From Escherichia virus TH40, in the sequence record MT446411.1: DNA of 64,000 nucleotides; one strand, 5' to 3'. A program made the translations under genes and the position numbers. How positions within the stretch are numbered: position 1 is the stretch's first letter; the number at the start of each line of letters is the position of its first letter. Positions 3,853-54,366 of the stretch are shown here, piece by piece. The notes under the pieces were generated by a model, which did no database searches, was not told the DNA's origin, and saw nothing but the letters and a program-made list of their open reading frames with translations.

Positions 3853-4221
3853 TTATGCGACTTTAATCCAATTATCTAAATTTAATTCACCCTTAGCTTT
3901 CATTTTTTCAATCAGAAGGTCTGCAGTGGTGCGACCATTTTGATACCATGTAACATCTTCAGAATAACCAGTTTCTTCATCTTCATAGGTCTTACAACGA
4001 ATCTTACCCAAAATCAAAGTTTTCAGTTCGTATGTATCACCAGTAAAAAAGTTTGTTACCATAATTTTCCAAGAGAAGTCATCAGAAGGACCTTCTGGAG
4101 TCATGCAACCTACAAATTCAAACTGCTCTTTATACAAGTGCCATTGCATCTCTTTAGTTTCGATTGCTTTGTAGCCGTCGTGGTCTTTACCTTTGATGTA
4201 TGAGTTAAGATTGATTTTCAT
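3853..4221 (-). CDS. hypothetical protein
   Basis: 122-aa ORF; early promoter cassette and GGAG SD immediately upstream. Confidence 0.5.
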   Translation of the reverse strand: MKINLNSYIKGKDHDGYKAIETKEMQWHLYKEQFEFVGCMTPEGPSDDFSWKIMVTNFFTGDTYELKTLILGKIRCKTYEDEETGYSEDVTWYQNGRTTADLLIEKMKAKGELNLDNWIKVA

Positions 4222-4262
4222 TTTATGCTCCAGTGTTTTATTGTGTAACTCAGTATGGAATC

Positions 4263-4292
4263 ATTATGCACTGGACCAACCCTGTTGTAAAC
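4263..4292 (-). promoter_or_regulatory. sigma70-type early promoter (cassette subtype I)
   Basis: Minus strand reads GTTTACA, 17-bp spacer, CATAAT; conserved leader ...CCATACTGAGTTACACAATAAAACACTGGAG then ATG. Confidence 0.55.
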
Positions 4293-4302
4293 CCCTTTAT
4301 GG

Positions 4303-4331
4303 AAAATAAAAAAGGGACTCCGAAGAGTCCC
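4303..4331 (-). terminator. rho-independent terminator
   Basis: Hairpin GGGACTCTTCGGAGTCCC followed by T-run on minus strand, directly after stop of 4337..4498 gene. Confidence 0.6.
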
Positions 4332-4336
4332 TGAAC

Positions 4337-4498
4337 TTATGCTTTCGGCTTACCAAAGCAAGCTGCATCGGCACGCAATACCGCACGAGCACGAGCCTGA
4401 AGTTTATCAGTCACCTGATTGATTCGCTTGTTGGACGCACGCTTGTAACCAGCGCGTTTGGAGGAGCCATCAACAACTTTAACTTCTTTCTTAGCCAT
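4337..4498 (-). CDS. small basic protein (53 aa)
   Basis: Hand-translated MAKKEVKVVDGSSKRAGYKRASNKRINQVTDKLQARARAVLRADAACFGKPKA; below track cut-off; followed by terminator. Confidence 0.45.
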   Translation of the reverse strand: MAKKEVKVVDGSSKRAGYKRASNKRINQVTDKLQARARAVLRADAACFGKPKA

Positions 4499-4895
4499 AT
4501 TAAATTCTCTTTAAAATAGAATGCAGGACTTATTGGCATTGCCTGCGCAAGCCCTCGAAGGGAACATTAGGTTTCGGATATTTAACGACAGGATAACCAT
4601 AAACCTCGTCAACATACCTTATAGCTCTTATCTGTTGCACACCGTTAGCTTAAAGGTTCCGGGTTCGATTTCTCGAGGATAAGATATATACTGATGGATA
4701 TATAGGCCTTGAGGCGTACTCCCGATTGGCCATCACCTCGGGGTAGCATGCACTTGCCGCTATAAGAATAACATTCAAGAGGTACACCGTAAAACTGTCG
4801 AGGTCTTAAAACTATAATGATTCGCAAATCATTAATCAGACGGTTCGACGGCTCCTCGATTTTAGCTCACACTAAGGCAGTGAATCTCCAATAAA

Positions 4896-5150
4896 TTACT
4901 TCAGGGTTACGACAAAATGACGAACAGCTTTACGGGCAGCAGATGCCAGCGGCTTAGCAAATTTCAGTTCATCTTTTGCTTCGAGCACTGCGCGAAGGTC
5001 GGTTTGAACCGGGTTAAGATGTTTGAAATACTGCAGAATTTCCAGTGCTTCGGCTTCAACATCAATAGATGCGCCGTAGTTTTCGTGACCGTTATTCCAT
5101 GCAGTGCGTTGCAGTTCAAGAGCGTGTTGTAATTGTTTGTTTAAAGACAT
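4896..5150 (-). CDS. hypothetical protein at the rIII position (84 aa from internal ATG; track ORF extends to 5285)
   Basis: ATG at 5148-5150 preceded by GAGG; position between the gene-30 cluster and gene 31 as in T4; assignment by synteny and size only. Confidence 0.45.
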   Translation of the reverse strand: MSLNKQLQHALELQRTAWNNGHENYGASIDVEAEALEILQYFKHLNPVQTDLRAVLEAKDELKFAKPLASAARKAVRHFVVTLK

Positions 5151-5290
5151 TTTAGAAGCCTCAATACGAGGTGAATATTTGGTGGACACGTTCTTCTGAA
5201 TTTCACTTCCTTTCGACAAGTCTCTCAGTTGTAGTCCACCGTTTAGGATTCTCCGGTTAACTAACTGGTCCGGCAGCCAATCCATATTAT

Positions 5291-5298
5291 TATTTATA
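5291..5298 (-). promoter_or_regulatory. possible late promoter (TATAAATA on minus strand)
   Basis: Plus strand tatttata = minus strand TATAAATA between gene 31 stop and the rIII-position gene. Confidence 0.35.
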
Positions 5299-5307
5299 AC
5301 GCTAATT

Positions 5308-5655
5308 TTACTTATAAAGACAAGGAACAGCTTTATAATGACAGGTCACAAATTTCTGCTTAACTTCTTTAGCCTGCTTAAGTCCCAGTGCAACCAGAGG
5401 ATGTGGAACGTTTGCAATCTTGCCAACCGGAAGAGGAGTCAAATCACCTACTTCGCAGAAGCCTTCAGGAACATCCGGACCAACCGAAAATACTTCACAC
5501 ATCTCCGGAATTTCACCCTGATGGAGTTTTCCGATAACGATGCCTGATGCCGTAGTTTCTTCATCACCAGCTTGCTTTGGCTCAGAAACCAAAATAATAT
5601 ATTCACCTACTGCTTTAATTGGTAATTCCATATTTAATCCATGTTGTTTGGTCAT
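5308..5655 (-). CDS. 31: co-chaperonin gp31 (GroES-like)
   Basis: [23 protein letters not shown]...[15 protein letters not shown]...[15 protein letters not shown] matches T4 gp31 as recalled. Confidence 0.9.
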
Positions 5656-5988: not shown

Positions 5989-6222
5989 TTATTCCAAAAC
6001 AGTTTTAATAGTGGTTGCATTACGCTCTTTTAAAGCGCTCAGCAGGGATTTGCATTTTTCAAAAACCGGGTCCGTTTTATACCGGATGCTTTCGTCAATC
6101 CATTCAGATTTATAGTAAGACTTCCAGCGAGAGAAGAAATACTTTTTGTATTCCACCGAAAAAGCGATTATACCCGTCCCCCGAGGACTAAGACTGGTTA
6201 TTTTAACCATACGAAATTTCAT
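5989..6222 (-). CDS. hypothetical protein
   Basis: 77-aa ORF in array. Confidence 0.45.
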   Translation of the reverse strand: MKFRMVKITSLSPRGTGIIAFSVEYKKYFFSRWKSYYKSEWIDESIRYKTDPVFEKCKSLLSALKERNATTIKTVLE

Positions 6223-6803
6223 TATTCACCACAAAATTCGTTAATGTTTTCCCAGTTCAATTTGTCTAAACTACGCTTAGGCACATTGAACACCTCAATT
6301 CCTGCATTCTTCAGGATATCATCCCAACCAGGAATATTCTTATCATACGTTTCACAGTAAACCAATTTCTTGATTCCTGATTGAGAAATTGCCTTTGCAC
6401 AGTCAGGGCAAGGGGAAAGCGTCACATACATAGTAGCGCCTTCAATTGACGAACCCATTCTTGCTGCAAACAGAATTGCATTAAGCTCAGCATGGATTTC
6501 GTTGTTCTTTGACCATGCAGAATGGGCTTCGCGATGGGCTTTCGCCAATACAAAACGGTCAACCTTACTGAATCTCACACATTCTGGCTTGTGACCGGTG
6601 ACGAGAACAGGTTTAGGTTTATTCAGTAACCAACCTTGCTCTTCCGCATGCTCGCAACAGTTGACCCCACCTGCAGGGGAACCATTATACCCTGTAGAAA
6701 TAATGCGTCCATTCTTTTCAATAACAGCTCCCACTTTCCAGGAGCAACATTTGGATTCTTGAGATACAAGGTATGCGATTTGCAGAACAGTAGTTGGTTT
6801 CAT
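6222..6803 (-). CDS. cd: dCMP deaminase
   Basis: 193 aa with HAELNAI and PCPDC zinc-binding deaminase motifs. Confidence 0.9.
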   Translation of the reverse strand: MKPTTVLQIAYLVSQESKCCSWKVGAVIEKNGRIISTGYNGSPAGGVNCCEHAEEQGWLLNKPKPVLVTGHKPECVRFSKVDRFVLAKAHREAHSAWSKNNEIHAELNAILFAARMGSSIEGATMYVTLSPCPDCAKAISQSGIKKLVYCETYDKNIPGWDDILKNAGIEVFNVPKRSLDKLNWENINEFCGE

Positions 6804-20730: not shown

Positions 20731-20771
20731 TTTATTCTCCAGTGTTTTAGTTGTTAACTCAGTATGGGACC

Positions 20772-20800
20772 ATTATGTCATAGCCCCATTTGGTTGTACA
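20772..20800 (-). promoter_or_regulatory. sigma70-type early promoter (cassette subtype I)
   Basis: Minus strand TGTACA, 17 bp, CATAAT; conserved subtype I leader. Confidence 0.5.
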
Positions 20801-20807
20801 TTACTTT

Positions 20808-21074
20808 TTAAATTTTATCAAGCCATTTGCCAAGTTTAATCATTTCCTTGTTGGCTTTTTCCATACTTCTGAACTTAACTAATAAAGGATATGTATCTAC
20901 ACCCATAACAAGATTGGTTGCAAGACTGTGCTCACCCACAAGCCATAATGAGTGGGTTTGAACATCCAGACCATAATTTCTGTCTTTATGCAAACGCACA
21001 CCCATCACTTCAAATTGTTCACTGGCTTTTTCCACTGCATCCAGGAAATCATCTTTAGTCATGTTAAATTCCAA
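20808..21074 (-). CDS. hypothetical protein
   Basis: 88-aa ORF in array. Confidence 0.45.
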   Translation of the reverse strand: MEFNMTKDDFLDAVEKASEQFEVMGVRLHKDRNYGLDVQTHSLWLVGEHSLATNLVMGVDTYPLLVKFRSMEKANKEMIKLGKWLDKI

Positions 21075-22137: not shown

Positions 22138-22175
22138 TTTTATTTCCTCAGTTGTTATCAGTAGTTGATGGAATC

Positions 22176-22204
22176 ATTATGCCTTAGCTCAAAGGACTTG
22201 TACA
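22176..22204 (-). promoter_or_regulatory. sigma70-type early promoter (cassette subtype II)
   Basis: Minus strand GTGTACA, 17 bp, CATAAT; leader CCATCAACTACTGATAACAACTGAGGA. Confidence 0.5.
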
Positions 22205-22213
22205 CTACTTTTT

Positions 22214-39023: not shown

Positions 39024-39072
39024 TTTATTCTCCAAAGTTTTTGTGATTCATTGTGTAACTCAGTATGGAATC

Positions 39073-39101
39073 ATTATGCATCAGGTCAAGGGTCATGTAC
39101 A
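39073..39101 (-). promoter_or_regulatory. sigma70-type early promoter (cassette subtype I)
   Basis: Minus strand TGTACA, 17 bp, CATAAT; conserved subtype I leader. Confidence 0.5.
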
Positions 39102-39126
39102 CTACTTTTTTAAATATTTTAAAATA

Positions 39127-40623: not shown

Positions 40624-40631
40624 ATATCACC

Positions 40632-40772
40632 TTACCAGATTAACGAATGTACTGCCATTATAGCATCAGAAATAAAAAGCACAACCTGCACTAATGCAAA
40701 CACAACTCCATAATATAGCGCTACCAATAAGGCAGCAAGGGCTAACGAGTAGCCCAAGATTTTCTTAATCAT
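40632..40772 (-). CDS. small membrane protein (46 aa)
   Basis: Hand-translated MIKKILGYSLALAALLVALYYGVVFALVQVVLFISDAIMAVHSLIW; ends 9 bp before gene 52 ATG. Confidence 0.45.
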   Translation of the reverse strand: MIKKILGYSLALAALLVALYYGVVFALVQVVLFISDAIMAVHSLIW

Positions 40773-40773
40773 T
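40731..40773 (-). repeat. direct repeat A, copy 1 (5' end of the MIKKILGYSLALAA gene)
   Basis: 43 bp matching 40986..41028 with one mismatch. Confidence 0.8.
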
Positions 40774-40917
40774 TTTATCCAATAATTTAAATAGTGTTAA
40801 AGTCGCTAATACACCTTGAGCTGTTGACTGCAGAAATACTGAAGTTTCTCCAGTTATTAATGTTCCAACAAATAAAAATGACCAACAGAAAAAAGCTACG
40901 CCATGAACAAATTTCAT
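40765..40917 (-). CDS. small membrane protein (50 aa)
   Basis: Hand-translated MKFVHGVAFFCWSFLFVGTLITGETSVFLQSTAQGVLATLTLFKLLDKND; GAGGAAAAT SD. Confidence 0.45.
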   Translation of the reverse strand: MKFVHGVAFFCWSFLFVGTLITGETSVFLQSTAQGVLATLTLFKLLDKND

Positions 40918-40980
40918 ATTTTCCTCAAGGGCGCCCAAAGACGCCAGTTAATTTCAGATTATGACGATGCCATTGCATCG
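40915..40980 (-). repeat. direct repeat B, copy 1 (stop - hairpin - SD - ATG unit)
   Basis: 66 bp matching 41180..41245 with about 4 mismatches; contains GGCGCCCAAAGACGCC hairpin. Confidence 0.8.
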
Positions 40981-41027
40981 CTACAGGCAGCAAGGGCTAA
41001 CGAATAGCCCAAGATTTTCTTAATCAT
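40959..41027 (-). pseudogene. truncated duplicate of the MIKKILGYSLALAA small-membrane-protein gene (22 codons)
   Basis: Reads MIKKILGYSLALAACSDAMASS then stop; first 14 codons identical to the 40632..40772 gene. Confidence 0.4.
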
Positions 41028-41028
41028 T
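40986..41028 (-). repeat. direct repeat A, copy 2
   Basis: See copy 1. Confidence 0.8.
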
Positions 41029-41182
41029 GTTTAGCTAACCTAAGTAAACCAACAAAAGTAGAAATAACCCATGCAATAAACAATGCACCCATGAAGAAGG
41101 TACTTGGAGTCCAGACTCCTAAAAAGAAGCAGGTTGAACAAACAATAGCTATAATAAGTTCAATAAAAACTAGGATAATCAT
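41024..41182 (-). CDS. small membrane protein (52 aa)
   Basis: Hand-translated MIILVFIELIIAIVCSTCFFLGVWTPSTFFMGALFIAWVISTFVGLLRLAKQ; GAGGAAAAT SD. Confidence 0.45.
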   Translation of the reverse strand: MIILVFIELIIAIVCSTCFFLGVWTPSTFFMGALFIAWVISTFVGLLRLAKQ

Positions 41183-41245
41183 ATTTTCCTCAAGGGCGTC
41201 CAAAGACGCCAGTTAATTTAAGATTATGGCGATGCCATTGCATCA
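41180..41245 (-). repeat. direct repeat B, copy 2
   Basis: Contains perfect hairpin GGCGTCCAAAGACGCC (41195..41210). Confidence 0.8.
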
Positions 41246-41262
41246 CATGTTCATTATGGAAA

Positions 41263-43484: not shown

Positions 43485-43517
43485 TTGTTTCTCCAGTTGG
43501 TAACTCAGTATGGAATC

Positions 43518-43546
43518 ATTATATATAGACTCCATACTGATGTACA
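43518..43546 (-). promoter_or_regulatory. sigma70-type early promoter (cassette subtype I)
   Basis: Minus strand TGTACA, 17 bp, TATAAT; subtype I leader. Confidence 0.5.
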
Positions 43547-43557
43547 CTACTTTTTGA

Positions 43558-53615: not shown

Positions 53616-53646
53616 TTTGTTATCCTCATCAGTAGTTGATGAGATG

Positions 53647-53675
53647 ATTATGTCTCTTTCCATTGGCCTTGTACA
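53647..53675 (-). promoter_or_regulatory. sigma70-type early promoter (cassette subtype II)
   Basis: Minus strand GTGTACA, 17 bp, CATAAT; leader CATCTCATCAACTACTGATGAGGA. Confidence 0.5.
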
Positions 53676-53682
53676 CTACTTT

Positions 53683-54366
53683 TTATCGTTTTTTCGGTAA
53701 AGATAACGGGTCTGCATCTTCTTCGGAAGGAACTTCATCCAAACCAAGAGCATAGCGCTGGGCATACTTAAGCATCAAAATATCTTTCGCGCAGTCATGC
53801 ACCGAATCATGCGCCACAAATCCATCTAAAGTCCCCTTCGGTAATGGAGTTTCACACATCTTACGGACGAGTGATAGGGCTTCAATTGCCGTCCTGATAT
53901 CTCGCTGGTTCCAGAATACAACCGGCTCCAGGCCGTAGGTATTCAATTCACGCTCGGGAATACCCTCATTGCGCTGTAGGTCACGGATAAGGTCAACAAA
54001 CAACGGGAAGTCAAAAGACATTCCACGACACCACATAAGGCTTTCGTATTTGTTAATTCCATTACCATTCAGATAATCAATTGCTTGTTGGATACCAGTC
54101 AGAGTATCAACATCTTGCGCAGAAGGAGCCAAGTTAACACGAGCTTCTGGAGATTGTTTTTTCCACCAACCCATAGTTGTTGTGTCAAACAGACGTTTAC
54201 CTTTCTGGTATTCTAGGCTGAACTTAATGCGTTTACCGCGATTAACCAGAGTTTCAAAAGATTCCACAATAGCAGGGTCAGATTCAAATGTAATCAGAGC
54301 CAGGTCAATAACGGCCCCCTTCGAGCCGTTTCCCAGAGTTTCAAAGTCAATAATAGCATCAATCAT
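53683..54366 (-). CDS. dexA: exonuclease A (DEDDh 3'-5' exonuclease)
   Basis: 227 aa; N-terminal IDFETLG exonuclease motif; position upstream of dda as in T4. Confidence 0.85.
   Translation of the reverse strand: MIDAIIDFETLGNGSKGAVIDLALITFESDPAIVESFETLVNRGKRIKFSLEYQKGKRLFDTTTMGWWKKQSPEARVNLAPSAQDVDTLTGIQQAIDYLNGNGINKYESLMWCRGMSFDFPLFVDLIRDLQRNEGIPERELNTYGLEPVVFWNQRDIRTAIEALSLVRKMCETPLPKGTLDGFVAHDSVHDCAKDILMLKYAQRYALGLDEVPSEEDADPLSLPKKR

Follow-up and report, generated by a model that had tools for sequence, protein, structure and literature searches.

The subject of this work is a non-coding spacer in the genome of Escherichia virus TH40 (MT446411.1) and, in particular, a folded RNA that lies within it. 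The window, by which we mean the whole stretch of DNA that was analysed, is 64,000 nucleotides (nt) long, and the spacer occupies positions 4499-4895, between the genes rIII and 30.9. The window is that of a T4-like phage. Its closest record is Shigella phage SP18 (Gaprivervirus), with 98.5% identity over the spacer by BLASTN, and the genes follow the SP18-type order 30.8 / 30.9 / spacer / rIII / 31 / cd. All genes around the spacer are on the minus strand, and so is the RNA (Table 1). The spacer is made up of blocks that we name A1, A2, B, D, H, S and the Shine–Dalgarno (SD) hairpin. On comparative grounds we show that module B is a folded non-coding RNA on the minus strand, from a family that was previously undescribed.

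A sequence-only reading of the window had drawn attention to this interval as one without a convincing open reading frame (ORF), and the interval is as it was described, 397 nt between the start of 30.9 (4498) and the stop codon of rIII (4896-4898). The 60-codon minus-strand frame that had been listed is present (4645-4827, with a TTG start). A short plus-strand frame exists as well, at 4521-4682, with 53 codons instead of the 51 claimed. That no longer stretch lacks a credible frame holds approximately: the largest block without an ORF of at least 70 amino acids (aa) is 4222-4895, which includes the small 30.9 gene, and the next largest, 40624-41262, is full of small hydrophobic ORFs. No conserved coding gene is found in the interval and the region is conserved in relatives, the 397 nt alone matching 998 phage records by BLASTN, mostly at 90-99% identity. 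The suggestion that it hosts a small or structured RNA is strongly supported, by covariation for a multi-helix RNA of 153 nt and by several more hairpins.

Fold and covariation of module B

Module B is a closed domain. In the RNA sense, from window position 4768 down to 4616, it reads UUCUUAUAGCGGCAAGUGCAUGCUACCCCGAGGUGAUGGCCAAUCGGGAGUACGCCUCAAGGCCUAUAUAUCCAUCAGUAUAUAUCUUAUCCUCGAGAAAUCGAACCCGGAACCUUUAAGCUAACGGUGUGCAACAGAUAAGAGCUAUAAGGU, with the structure

..((((((((..............(((((((..[[[[[[....))))).))..(((....))).((((((.]]]]]].))))))(((((((.((((....))))(((((...............))).))......)))))))))))))))..

The closing stem P0 (4759-4766 paired with 4618-4625) opens into a multi-helix junction that holds Pa, a small CC/GG hairpin, Pc and P1. 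P1 in turn leads to a three-way junction with P2 and P3, where P2 carries a GAAA loop at 4669-4672. The loops of Pa and Pc are joined by 6 bp between UGAUGG (4730-4735) and CCAUCA (4692-4697). The minimum-free-energy (MFE) fold of the single sequence recovers every nested helix (z = -1.9), whereas that of the opposite strand does not (z = -0.9).

In a plain MAFFT alignment of 15 sequences, 98.4% of the cells are paired and 13 of the 38 pairs are compensated, compared with 0-3 in shifted controls, and none of 500 shuffles matches this. We then built a covariance model, R2, after adding P0 and divergent members, which scores B in the window at 184 bits (E = 2e-47, a single copy). Its 37 matches were re-aligned, 32 of them distinct, and in this alignment 95.3% of the cells are paired and 35 of 46 pairs compensated (shifted controls 7-10; again 0 of 500 shuffles). 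The versions of P0 are nearly all different by lineage, e.g. CUUAUAGC/GCUAUAAG, UAAAC/GUUUA, ACAC/GUGU, AUAUUAC/GUAGUAU and UAGUAG/CUACUA. In each of the 32 sequences, 6 nt of the Pa loop are an exact complement of 6 nt of the Pc loop, and five versions of this pairing occur (UGAUGG/CCAUCA, CGAUGG/CCAUCG, CUAUGG/CCAUAG, CAAUGA/UCAUUG and UGCAUU/AAUGCA).

Helices Pa, Pc, P2 and P3 are 100% paired, and among their cells are 12 with G-U, each of which would become an A-C mismatch if the opposite strand were the RNA. The GNRA loops of P2 (GAAA, GUAA) also occur on the minus strand only, and for both reasons the minus strand is taken as the RNA strand. As G-U is tolerated in these four helices and A-C is not, selection is at the level of RNA rather than duplex DNA. 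Some 50 nucleotides, most of them unpaired, do not vary in any copy; they belong to the stretches GGCAAGnGCAUG of the junction, GGCCUA, GGAnCC...GCUAAC of the P3 loop, and GUGnGCAAC. We tried by hand to find a pairing partner for the invariant 5′ junction strand, GGCAAGnGCAUG, in the P3 loop, J3/1 and GGCC; as these candidates are invariant too, none of them gains support.

A decayed tRNA and a small coding gene are essentially excluded for the interval, and a DNA element such as an origin or recombination site is very improbable. The tRNA had been suggested by the segment GGTTCCGGGTTCGATT, which is indeed present on the plus strand at 4655-4670, and nine plus-strand bases, with GGTTCGATT, resemble a T-loop. 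However, there is no cloverleaf, a 5-bp T-arm stem with a 7-nt GTTCRANYC-type loop is not formed at these positions, and this is the non-functional strand. The equivalent bases of the RNA are the end of the GAAA loop, the 3′ arm of P2 (UCGA), the 5′ arm of P3 (ACCCG) and loop bases, and their partners covary. ARAGORN predicts no tRNA gene in the whole window, and Rfam gives no tRNA or tmRNA match at E up to 10 in 4200-5300. As for coding, short ORFs of 53-60 codons do exist and some depositors have annotated 'hypothetical proteins' here, but every frame of all 32 homologues is interrupted by stops within B and the lengths of the copies (150, 152, 153, 154, 157, 158 and 162 nt) do not go in steps of three. 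The origin-like region that had been proposed has no support: the wobble pattern points to selection on RNA, and a promoter scan of 4499-4895 finds no sigma-70-like promoter for an R-loop origin of the oriF/oriG type, with MotA boxes judged by eye only.

We also compared B with known RNAs. The 4227 models of Rfam 15, which include riboswitches, ribozymes, small RNAs (sRNAs) and repeats of the clustered regularly interspaced short palindromic repeat (CRISPR) type, have no match in the window at gathering thresholds. Below threshold (E up to 10, 4200-5300), the best scores are 12-21 bits, compared with cut-offs of 50-80, and all are outside B. A likeness to helix h27 of the 16S rRNA and to 4.5S RNA was dismissed: it consists of shared 6-9-mers found by eye, of which about one 9-mer and about three 8-mers are expected by chance, and no Rfam match accompanies it. 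The only other non-tRNA small RNAs annotated in T4 are rnaC and rnaD (species 1 and 2), which are, like B, small RNAs of T4-type phages (~120-140 nt) and are cut from longer transcripts. Their locus is different, rnaC ends in a tRNA-like arm that B does not have, and R2 with filters off scores at best 7 bits in the corresponding 68-74 kb of T4. A search of the literature on T4 rIII and 30.9, T4 small RNAs and phage structured RNAs, and with exact sequence strings, found no description of B. A 2023 catalogue of ~10,000 candidate viral RNAs may contain B, without characterisation (PMC10690425).

Distribution and a second locus

Module B alone matches 406 of 50,697 phage records by BLASTN. The hosts are Klebsiella (161), Escherichia (129), Shigella, Enterobacter, Yersinia, Serratia and others, and among the records listed B either has no annotation or is called a 'hypothetical protein', and in none is it given as an RNA. 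There is no match in 5,426 E. coli genomes, and the B pattern is found in 0 of 185,579 bacterial and archaeal species genomes (one genome each). It does occur in 13 metagenome contigs, several of them of T4-like genome size (~165-174 kb), and looser pattern scans of IMG/VR return only further contigs of T4-like size. B is absent from T4, e11/2, G2469 and BP32, where the flanking modules are identical. For T4 itself, R2 is negative in 100 kb and in the tRNA region, and the remaining ~63 kb were covered by BLASTN only, with no T4 match.

Divergent copies of B, with R2 scores of 78-115 bits, are found in the Slopekvirus and Pseudotevenvirus phages K41P2, phiEap-3 and Citrof4. These are located between uvsY.-2 and the convergent helicase gene uvsW.1 and show compensatory changes in all helices, P3 and the kissing loops among them. 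KP15 has no B at this site, where TATAAATACTAGC runs directly into GUACCCGAAAGGGGCUUG. In phiEap-3, B is inserted between a late-promoter box and a hairpin, with TATAAATACTATC immediately 5′ of it. Set against the uninterrupted KP15 sequence, this insertion identifies B as an autonomous domain that is closed by its own stem. Judging by promoter consensus, B is inserted in two unrelated and presumably transcribed spacers, both downstream of a late-promoter match. The idea of a mobile-element remnant is partly right. B is mobile, being a clean present-or-absent insertion at two unrelated loci; it is not a remnant, as it is intact and under selection.

The Slopekvirus spacer is of some interest itself. 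It is ~325 nt long (396-721 of the fetched KP15 locus; also 1250-1480 of another fetched locus, L107) and has matches in 176 phage records. Besides a late-promoter box, it contains hairpin H, a bidirectional terminator and ~200 conserved nt. This may be another unannotated late RNA, or a 41-codon ORF, the frame of which is not kept in K41P2.

Could B cut the message that carries it? Self-cleaving ribozymes are known from phage genomes, and a compact, closed, pseudoknotted fold with invariant unpaired nucleotides is what ribozyme cores look like. As B is intercistronic, a new self-cleaving ribozyme, or an RNase-processing signal, could separate the rIII and 30.9 parts of the mRNA. We regard this as improbable. 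Rfam ribozyme families give no match to B at E up to 10, the same two genes are expressed in phages that lack B, and the Slopekvirus copy would be at the 5′ end of its transcript, where there is nothing to separate.

Neighbouring modules and the predicted transcription unit

Aligning the spacers of 12 phages, from rIII to 30.9, reveals separate, sharp-edged blocks that a given phage either has or lacks. The T4 spacer (244 nt, 130541-130784) is composed of A1-A2-D-H-S, and that of the window has the T4 blocks and, between A2 and D, an inserted B. Klebsiella, Citrobacter and Enterobacter phages have B and no A. The order is A-B-D-H-S in the window, D-B-H-S in KpV477, and H-B-D in EcS1 and PS49. 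The modules are more conserved than the flanking genes. Between the window and T4, module A (A1 and A2, 4769-4895) is 96.1% identical, compared with 83.6% for rIII, 66.7% for 30.9 and 76.0% for gp31; between the window and KpV477 or Merlin, B is 88-92% identical, compared with 75-78% for rIII, 61-74% for 30.9 and 64-67% for gp31.

Table 1. Genes, RNA modules and predicted signals at the rIII-30.9 locus, in window coordinates
Feature	Position	Strand	Description
30.8	3853-4221	minus	Pfam Phage_30_8
Predicted intrinsic terminator	4313-4332	minus	AGGGACUC-UUCG-GAGUCCCU, then U6; after 30.9
30.9 homologue	4337-4498	minus	ATG at 4496-4498; 53 aa; PHROG 1427
rIII/30.9 spacer	4499-4895		397 nt; between 30.9 start (4498) and rIII stop
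SD hairpin	4504-4522	minus	AUUCU[AUUUUAAAG]AGAAU; from the MFE fold of the whole spacer
Module S	4523-4546	minus	Variable stem-loop GCAGG...CCUGC
Module H	4548-4565	minus	Hairpin GUUCCC-UUCGA-GGG, then invariant CUUG
Module D	4566-4617	minus	Hairpin GAC-G-AGG / CCU-GUC, conserved loop GGUUAUC, conserved tail CGUUAAAUAUCCGAAACC
Module B	4616-4768	minus	153-nt closed domain; eight helices including a 6-bp loop-loop (kissing) pseudoknot
Module A2	4771-4861	minus	91-nt long irregular hairpin; tip is an 8-bp hairpin (4815-4834), then UAGUUUU
Module A1	4862-4895	minus	Directly after rIII stop; hairpin UCAC[UGCCUUAGU]GUGA at 4867-4883
rIII	4896-4898 (stop codon)	minus	
T4 late-promoter consensus box	5291-5298	minus	TATAAATA; upstream of rIII
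gp31	5308-5655	minus	
cd	6222-6803	minus	

The 4-bp stem of A1 is kept in two versions (UCAC/GUGA and UCGC/GCGG). This module is found in T4, SP18, Pinarejo and e11/2 and is missing from the Klebsiella, Citrobacter and Enterobacter phages. Its sequence, AUUCACUGCCUUAGUGUGAGCUAAAAUC, agrees at ~18 of 28 bases, including UUCACUGCC and AGCUAA, with a type I-F CRISPR repeat. The likeness is probably due to chance, because the stem register differs (the covarying stem is UCRC/GYGR, not CUGCC/GGCAG) and no Rfam CRISPR repeat model matches; an RNA anti-CRISPR that mimics such a repeat was accordingly rejected.

Module A2 has a mean column identity of 98% across Tequatro-, Dhaka-, Gapriver- and Mosigvirus, and the statistical power of a covariation test is low for this reason. 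Nevertheless, its 23 pairs have 98.4% of their cells paired, and compensatory changes are seen in 2 of them (CCGU/ACGG to CCAU/AUGG; AACUGUC/GGCAGUU to AAUUGUC/GGCAAUU), compared with 0 in every shifted control. The hairpin at its tip, TAATGATT-tgcg-AATCATTA, had been noticed in the sequence-only reading; it is there, unique in the window, and is enclosed by helices h2 and h3 of A2. The 'T-rich run' said to follow it is merely TAGTTTTAAG. The hairpin was not accepted as a terminator: its stem has 1 G-C pair in 8, the tail has 4 U and the terminator scan is silent.

The stem conservation of the remaining modules, D, H and S, was judged by eye. Compensated versions of D are GUC-G-UAG/CUA-GAC in EcS1 and GAC-G-UGG/CCA-GUC in PS49, and the module precedes B in KpV477-type phages but follows it in the window. 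A promoter role was rejected for D in view of incorrect sigma-70 spacing, a poor match to the MotA box and the lack of conservation of the late-box-like GTTAAATA, which reads GTAAAACA in KpV477.

Module H, unique in the window, is in the 30.9 leader of most phages examined, T4 included. It is found directly after the rIII stop in PS49, EcS1 and a further fetched sequence (L101), with the 30.9 leader of PS49 having no H, and no copy was found in contig L047. It also adjoins B at the Slopekvirus locus. Its stem variants include CCCU/AGGG, CCUCU/AGAGG and CCC/GGG. Within ~950 kb of fetched phage loci the pattern GUWCCC-loop-GGGCUUG is confined to the rIII-30.9 spacer and the Slopekvirus locus. 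H was rejected as a MotA box, given that a -10 element is not conserved in the long-leader phages.

Elsewhere S is replaced by unrelated self-complementary sequences (GGGAGC/GCUCCC, GAACUGG/CCAGUUC, GAGAGGUC/GACUCUC). The 3′ arm of the SD hairpin overlaps the likely Shine–Dalgarno region of 30.9, and leaders of the Klebsiella type have an analogous hairpin, UUCUCCA/UGGAAGA, in the same place. The predicted fold suggests that the hairpin may sequester the ribosome site. Folding of the whole spacer as a single sequence is uninformative alone (z = -1.5 and -1.0). Taken together, A2 looks like the 3′-end stem-loop of rIII, and H, S and the SD hairpin look like a structured 30.9 leader, which is ordinary mRNA architecture that is unusually well conserved. 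The regulatory region that had been proposed for the interval is plausible for this leader part.

Might the whole interval, B included, be passive mRNA architecture of this sort, slowing exonucleases or RNase E with no specific partner for B? A2, H, S and the SD hairpin do resemble ordinary stabilising or translational hairpins, and B is 3′-untranslated-region-like here and 5′-terminal in Slopekvirus. However, a stabiliser needs stems; it does not need ~50 invariant, mostly unpaired nucleotides or a contact that covaries in five versions, and the sequence of B is conserved above the level of the neighbouring proteins. We therefore rate this even lower than a processing element.

In e11/2, G2469 and CAU_ECP01 a different insert of ~45 nt, UACUAUCAUGCGUCAGAAAAGUGUUAUCUGUGUAAGUCUUG, is found exactly at the site of B (window ~4770), which suggests that insertions recur at the A2/D junction. 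Jiaodavirus-type phages have one more hairpin module, UGUACGCCCACCAUGUGUACGCAUGGGUAAC, upstream of D and B (~1650-1745 of the fetched KpV477 locus). In contig L047 this module is downstream of B, which again points to shuffling of small RNA modules in the spacer. Such exchange is reminiscent of the PeSL cassettes of T4-type phages, short non-coding elements that mark points of indel and shuffling between close genomes and consist of repeated DNA motifs, an early promoter plus a terminator (PMC2839356, PMC4122927). Unlike these, the spacer has no sigma-70-like promoter, and B is single-copy with a complex covarying fold, so B is not a PeSL. Early-promoter repeats are located elsewhere, e.g. at 4240-4300. 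They form a family of ~60-nt direct repeats (4240-4300, 20749-20809, 22153-22213, 39050-39110, 43495-43555 and 53628-53684) that corresponds to T4-type early promoters on the minus strand, and one of them, just downstream of the 30.9 terminator, drives 30.8.

Consensus matches alone predict a unit that runs from the late promoter through rIII, the spacer and 30.9 to the terminator. There are only 5 boxes of the TATAAATA type on the minus strand of the whole window, and the one upstream of rIII is the likely source of late transcripts that cross the spacer. The end of the unit is presumably marked by the terminator after 30.9, the sole terminator-like site that a scan of 4200-5400 finds, which is already annotated in e11/2, G2469 and Merlin.

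Some gene models at the locus also deserve comment. The ORF of 129 codons at the rIII position is over-extended. Homology to T4 rIII begins at an internal ATG at 5150 (84 aa), the over-extended part is 5151-5285, and the late box is 5 nt upstream of its first ATG. The long form is annotated in SP18 and in some other records. T4 'ORF 31.-2' (73 aa; M37882, 447-665 of the fetched stretch) is an older, N-terminally longer version of 30.9, comparable with window 4411-4539. Its AUG is inside module S, and the same AUG in the window is out of frame with 30.9, so that conservation does not reach into the longer N-terminus. In the current T4 record, 30.9 has the short form, with 58 aa.

Elsewhere in the window, at 40,730-41,244, there are two pairs of 47-66-nt repeats (families D10 and D16) that are 255-265 nt apart and 95-96% identical. 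These lie in a run of small hydrophobic ORFs downstream of the gp52 topoisomerase homologue and suggest that a gene for a small membrane peptide was recently duplicated in tandem.

Possible functions of module B

As the comparisons show, the spacer is a string of independently folding RNA modules, one of which, B, belongs to a new RNA family. The explanation we prefer, and consider rather probable, is that B is a self-contained cassette with a function of its own. B would be made as part of a late rIII-30.9 transcript and, in Slopekvirus, as the 5′ end of a late transcript. Its action would be that of an independent folded RNA, in which the kissing hairpins would hold the conserved junction in a defined shape, as a binding or active site. 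This shape may bind a partner (a protein or a small ligand) or may be catalytic. As a self-contained cassette, an RNA 'moron', B could spread among T4-like phages. Phages with and without B share the downstream D-H-S leader, which argues that B is not a dedicated regulator of 30.9, and, as B also has no fixed place with respect to D and H, a self-contained function is favoured.

The foremost of the rival explanations, ahead of the processing element and the passive stabiliser, is a riboswitch-like leader. Here, B would be a cis-acting aptamer that senses a metabolite or a protein and controls, via H, S and the SD hairpin, how the downstream small gene (30.9 in the window, a small ORF at the Slopekvirus locus) is translated or how stable its message is. 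Purine and lysine riboswitch aptamers share with B a closing helix, two neighbouring hairpins with paired loops, invariant junction nucleotides and a size of 100-170 nt, and the nearest analogy for B is an architectural one with such junction-plus-kissing-loop aptamers. The closing stem is weak and AU-rich, the side-by-side hairpins have a covarying loop-loop contact, and an aptamer fold with covariation (35 of 46 pairs) and an invariant junction (~50 columns) is what we observe. B is sense-oriented and upstream of a small ORF in all cases. H adjoins it in nearly every copy examined, at both loci, with none near B in L047 and a replacement in Citrof4, and the ribosome site of 30.9 is within a hairpin.

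On the other hand, the junction of B is a larger, multi-helix one, there is an extra three-way junction, no expression platform is recognisable and no Rfam riboswitch matches. A riboswitch is expected in a constant 5′-leader position for one class of gene. B is an optional insertion in front of unrelated genes at two loci, its order relative to D and H is variable, and T4 has the same 30.9 gene with no B in front of it. Indeed, the same leader, D-H-S-SD, occurs without B in T4 and with B in Pinarejo. The distance from B to the start codon and the modules in between vary, H being upstream of B in PS49 and EcS1. Comparing the 3′ strands of P0 and P1 with the downstream sequence reveals no alternative pairing that holds across variants, and no conserved pairing exclusive with the putative aptamer was seen by inspection, no dedicated algorithm having been run. 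We therefore think a riboswitch-like leader unlikely, if worth keeping in mind.

A more specific version of the self-contained cassette, which we put forward tentatively and do not expect to be the likelier case, is that B acts in trans. An accessory, laterally exchanged pattern is typical of host-interaction functions in the hyperplastic regions of T4-like phages. B may, for example, be a late decoy or inhibitor that uses its invariant junction to bind a host factor, such as a defence or RNA-decay protein, or it may form oligomers by intermolecular kissing loops. In the phage-associated RNAs phi29 pRNA, ROOL and GOLLD, intermolecular kissing contacts build oligomers (PMC12286853). B has complementary kissing loops as well, in a contact that could be intra- or intermolecular, between which the sequence cannot decide; it is much smaller than ROOL and GOLLD and has no homology to them. 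To our knowledge, T4-type packaging needs no RNA.

A number of points should temper our preferred explanation. The diversity of B is shallow, most copies being >90% identical, and the very high identity between genera could come partly from recent horizontal transfer and not from constraint alone. Many of the compensatory cells are contributed by few lineages (the Slopekvirus type, EcS1, L047 and the Serratia type), and the small CC/GG hairpin and three pairs of P3 never vary. The 35 compensated pairs come from a 32-sequence alignment that was fitted to the model, which favours structure, although the unfitted 15-sequence test agrees. Transcription, processing and stability of B are read from promoter and terminator consensus matches only. 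The results fit a protein partner, a ligand or catalysis alike, and the constant location of B before a small ORF on its own strand is compatible with a cis-regulatory role.

These results matter for a well-studied group of viruses. No virulent phages are better studied than the T4-like ones, which are also a mainstay of collections for phage therapy, and B is found in JS98, SP18 and many Klebsiella phages. In ~400 deposited genomes it is unannotated or mis-annotated as a 'hypothetical protein', and our result corrects spurious ORF calls in this interval. The rIII-30.9 spacer, which even in T4 is 244 nt long, is a region of conserved RNA structure and not empty space. We know of no structured RNA genes in T4-like phages beyond tRNAs, introns and rnaC/rnaD, and a fold as complex as that of B is usually restricted to riboswitches, ribozymes and ribonucleoprotein scaffolds. 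B is optional, is exchanged between genera and loci and is confined to phages, and is hence directly testable: natural pairs with and without B, and with identical flanks, exist, e.g. Pinarejo and T4. If B does prove to be a trans-acting cassette, it would be the first accessory, horizontally mobile functional RNA to be described in the T4 family.

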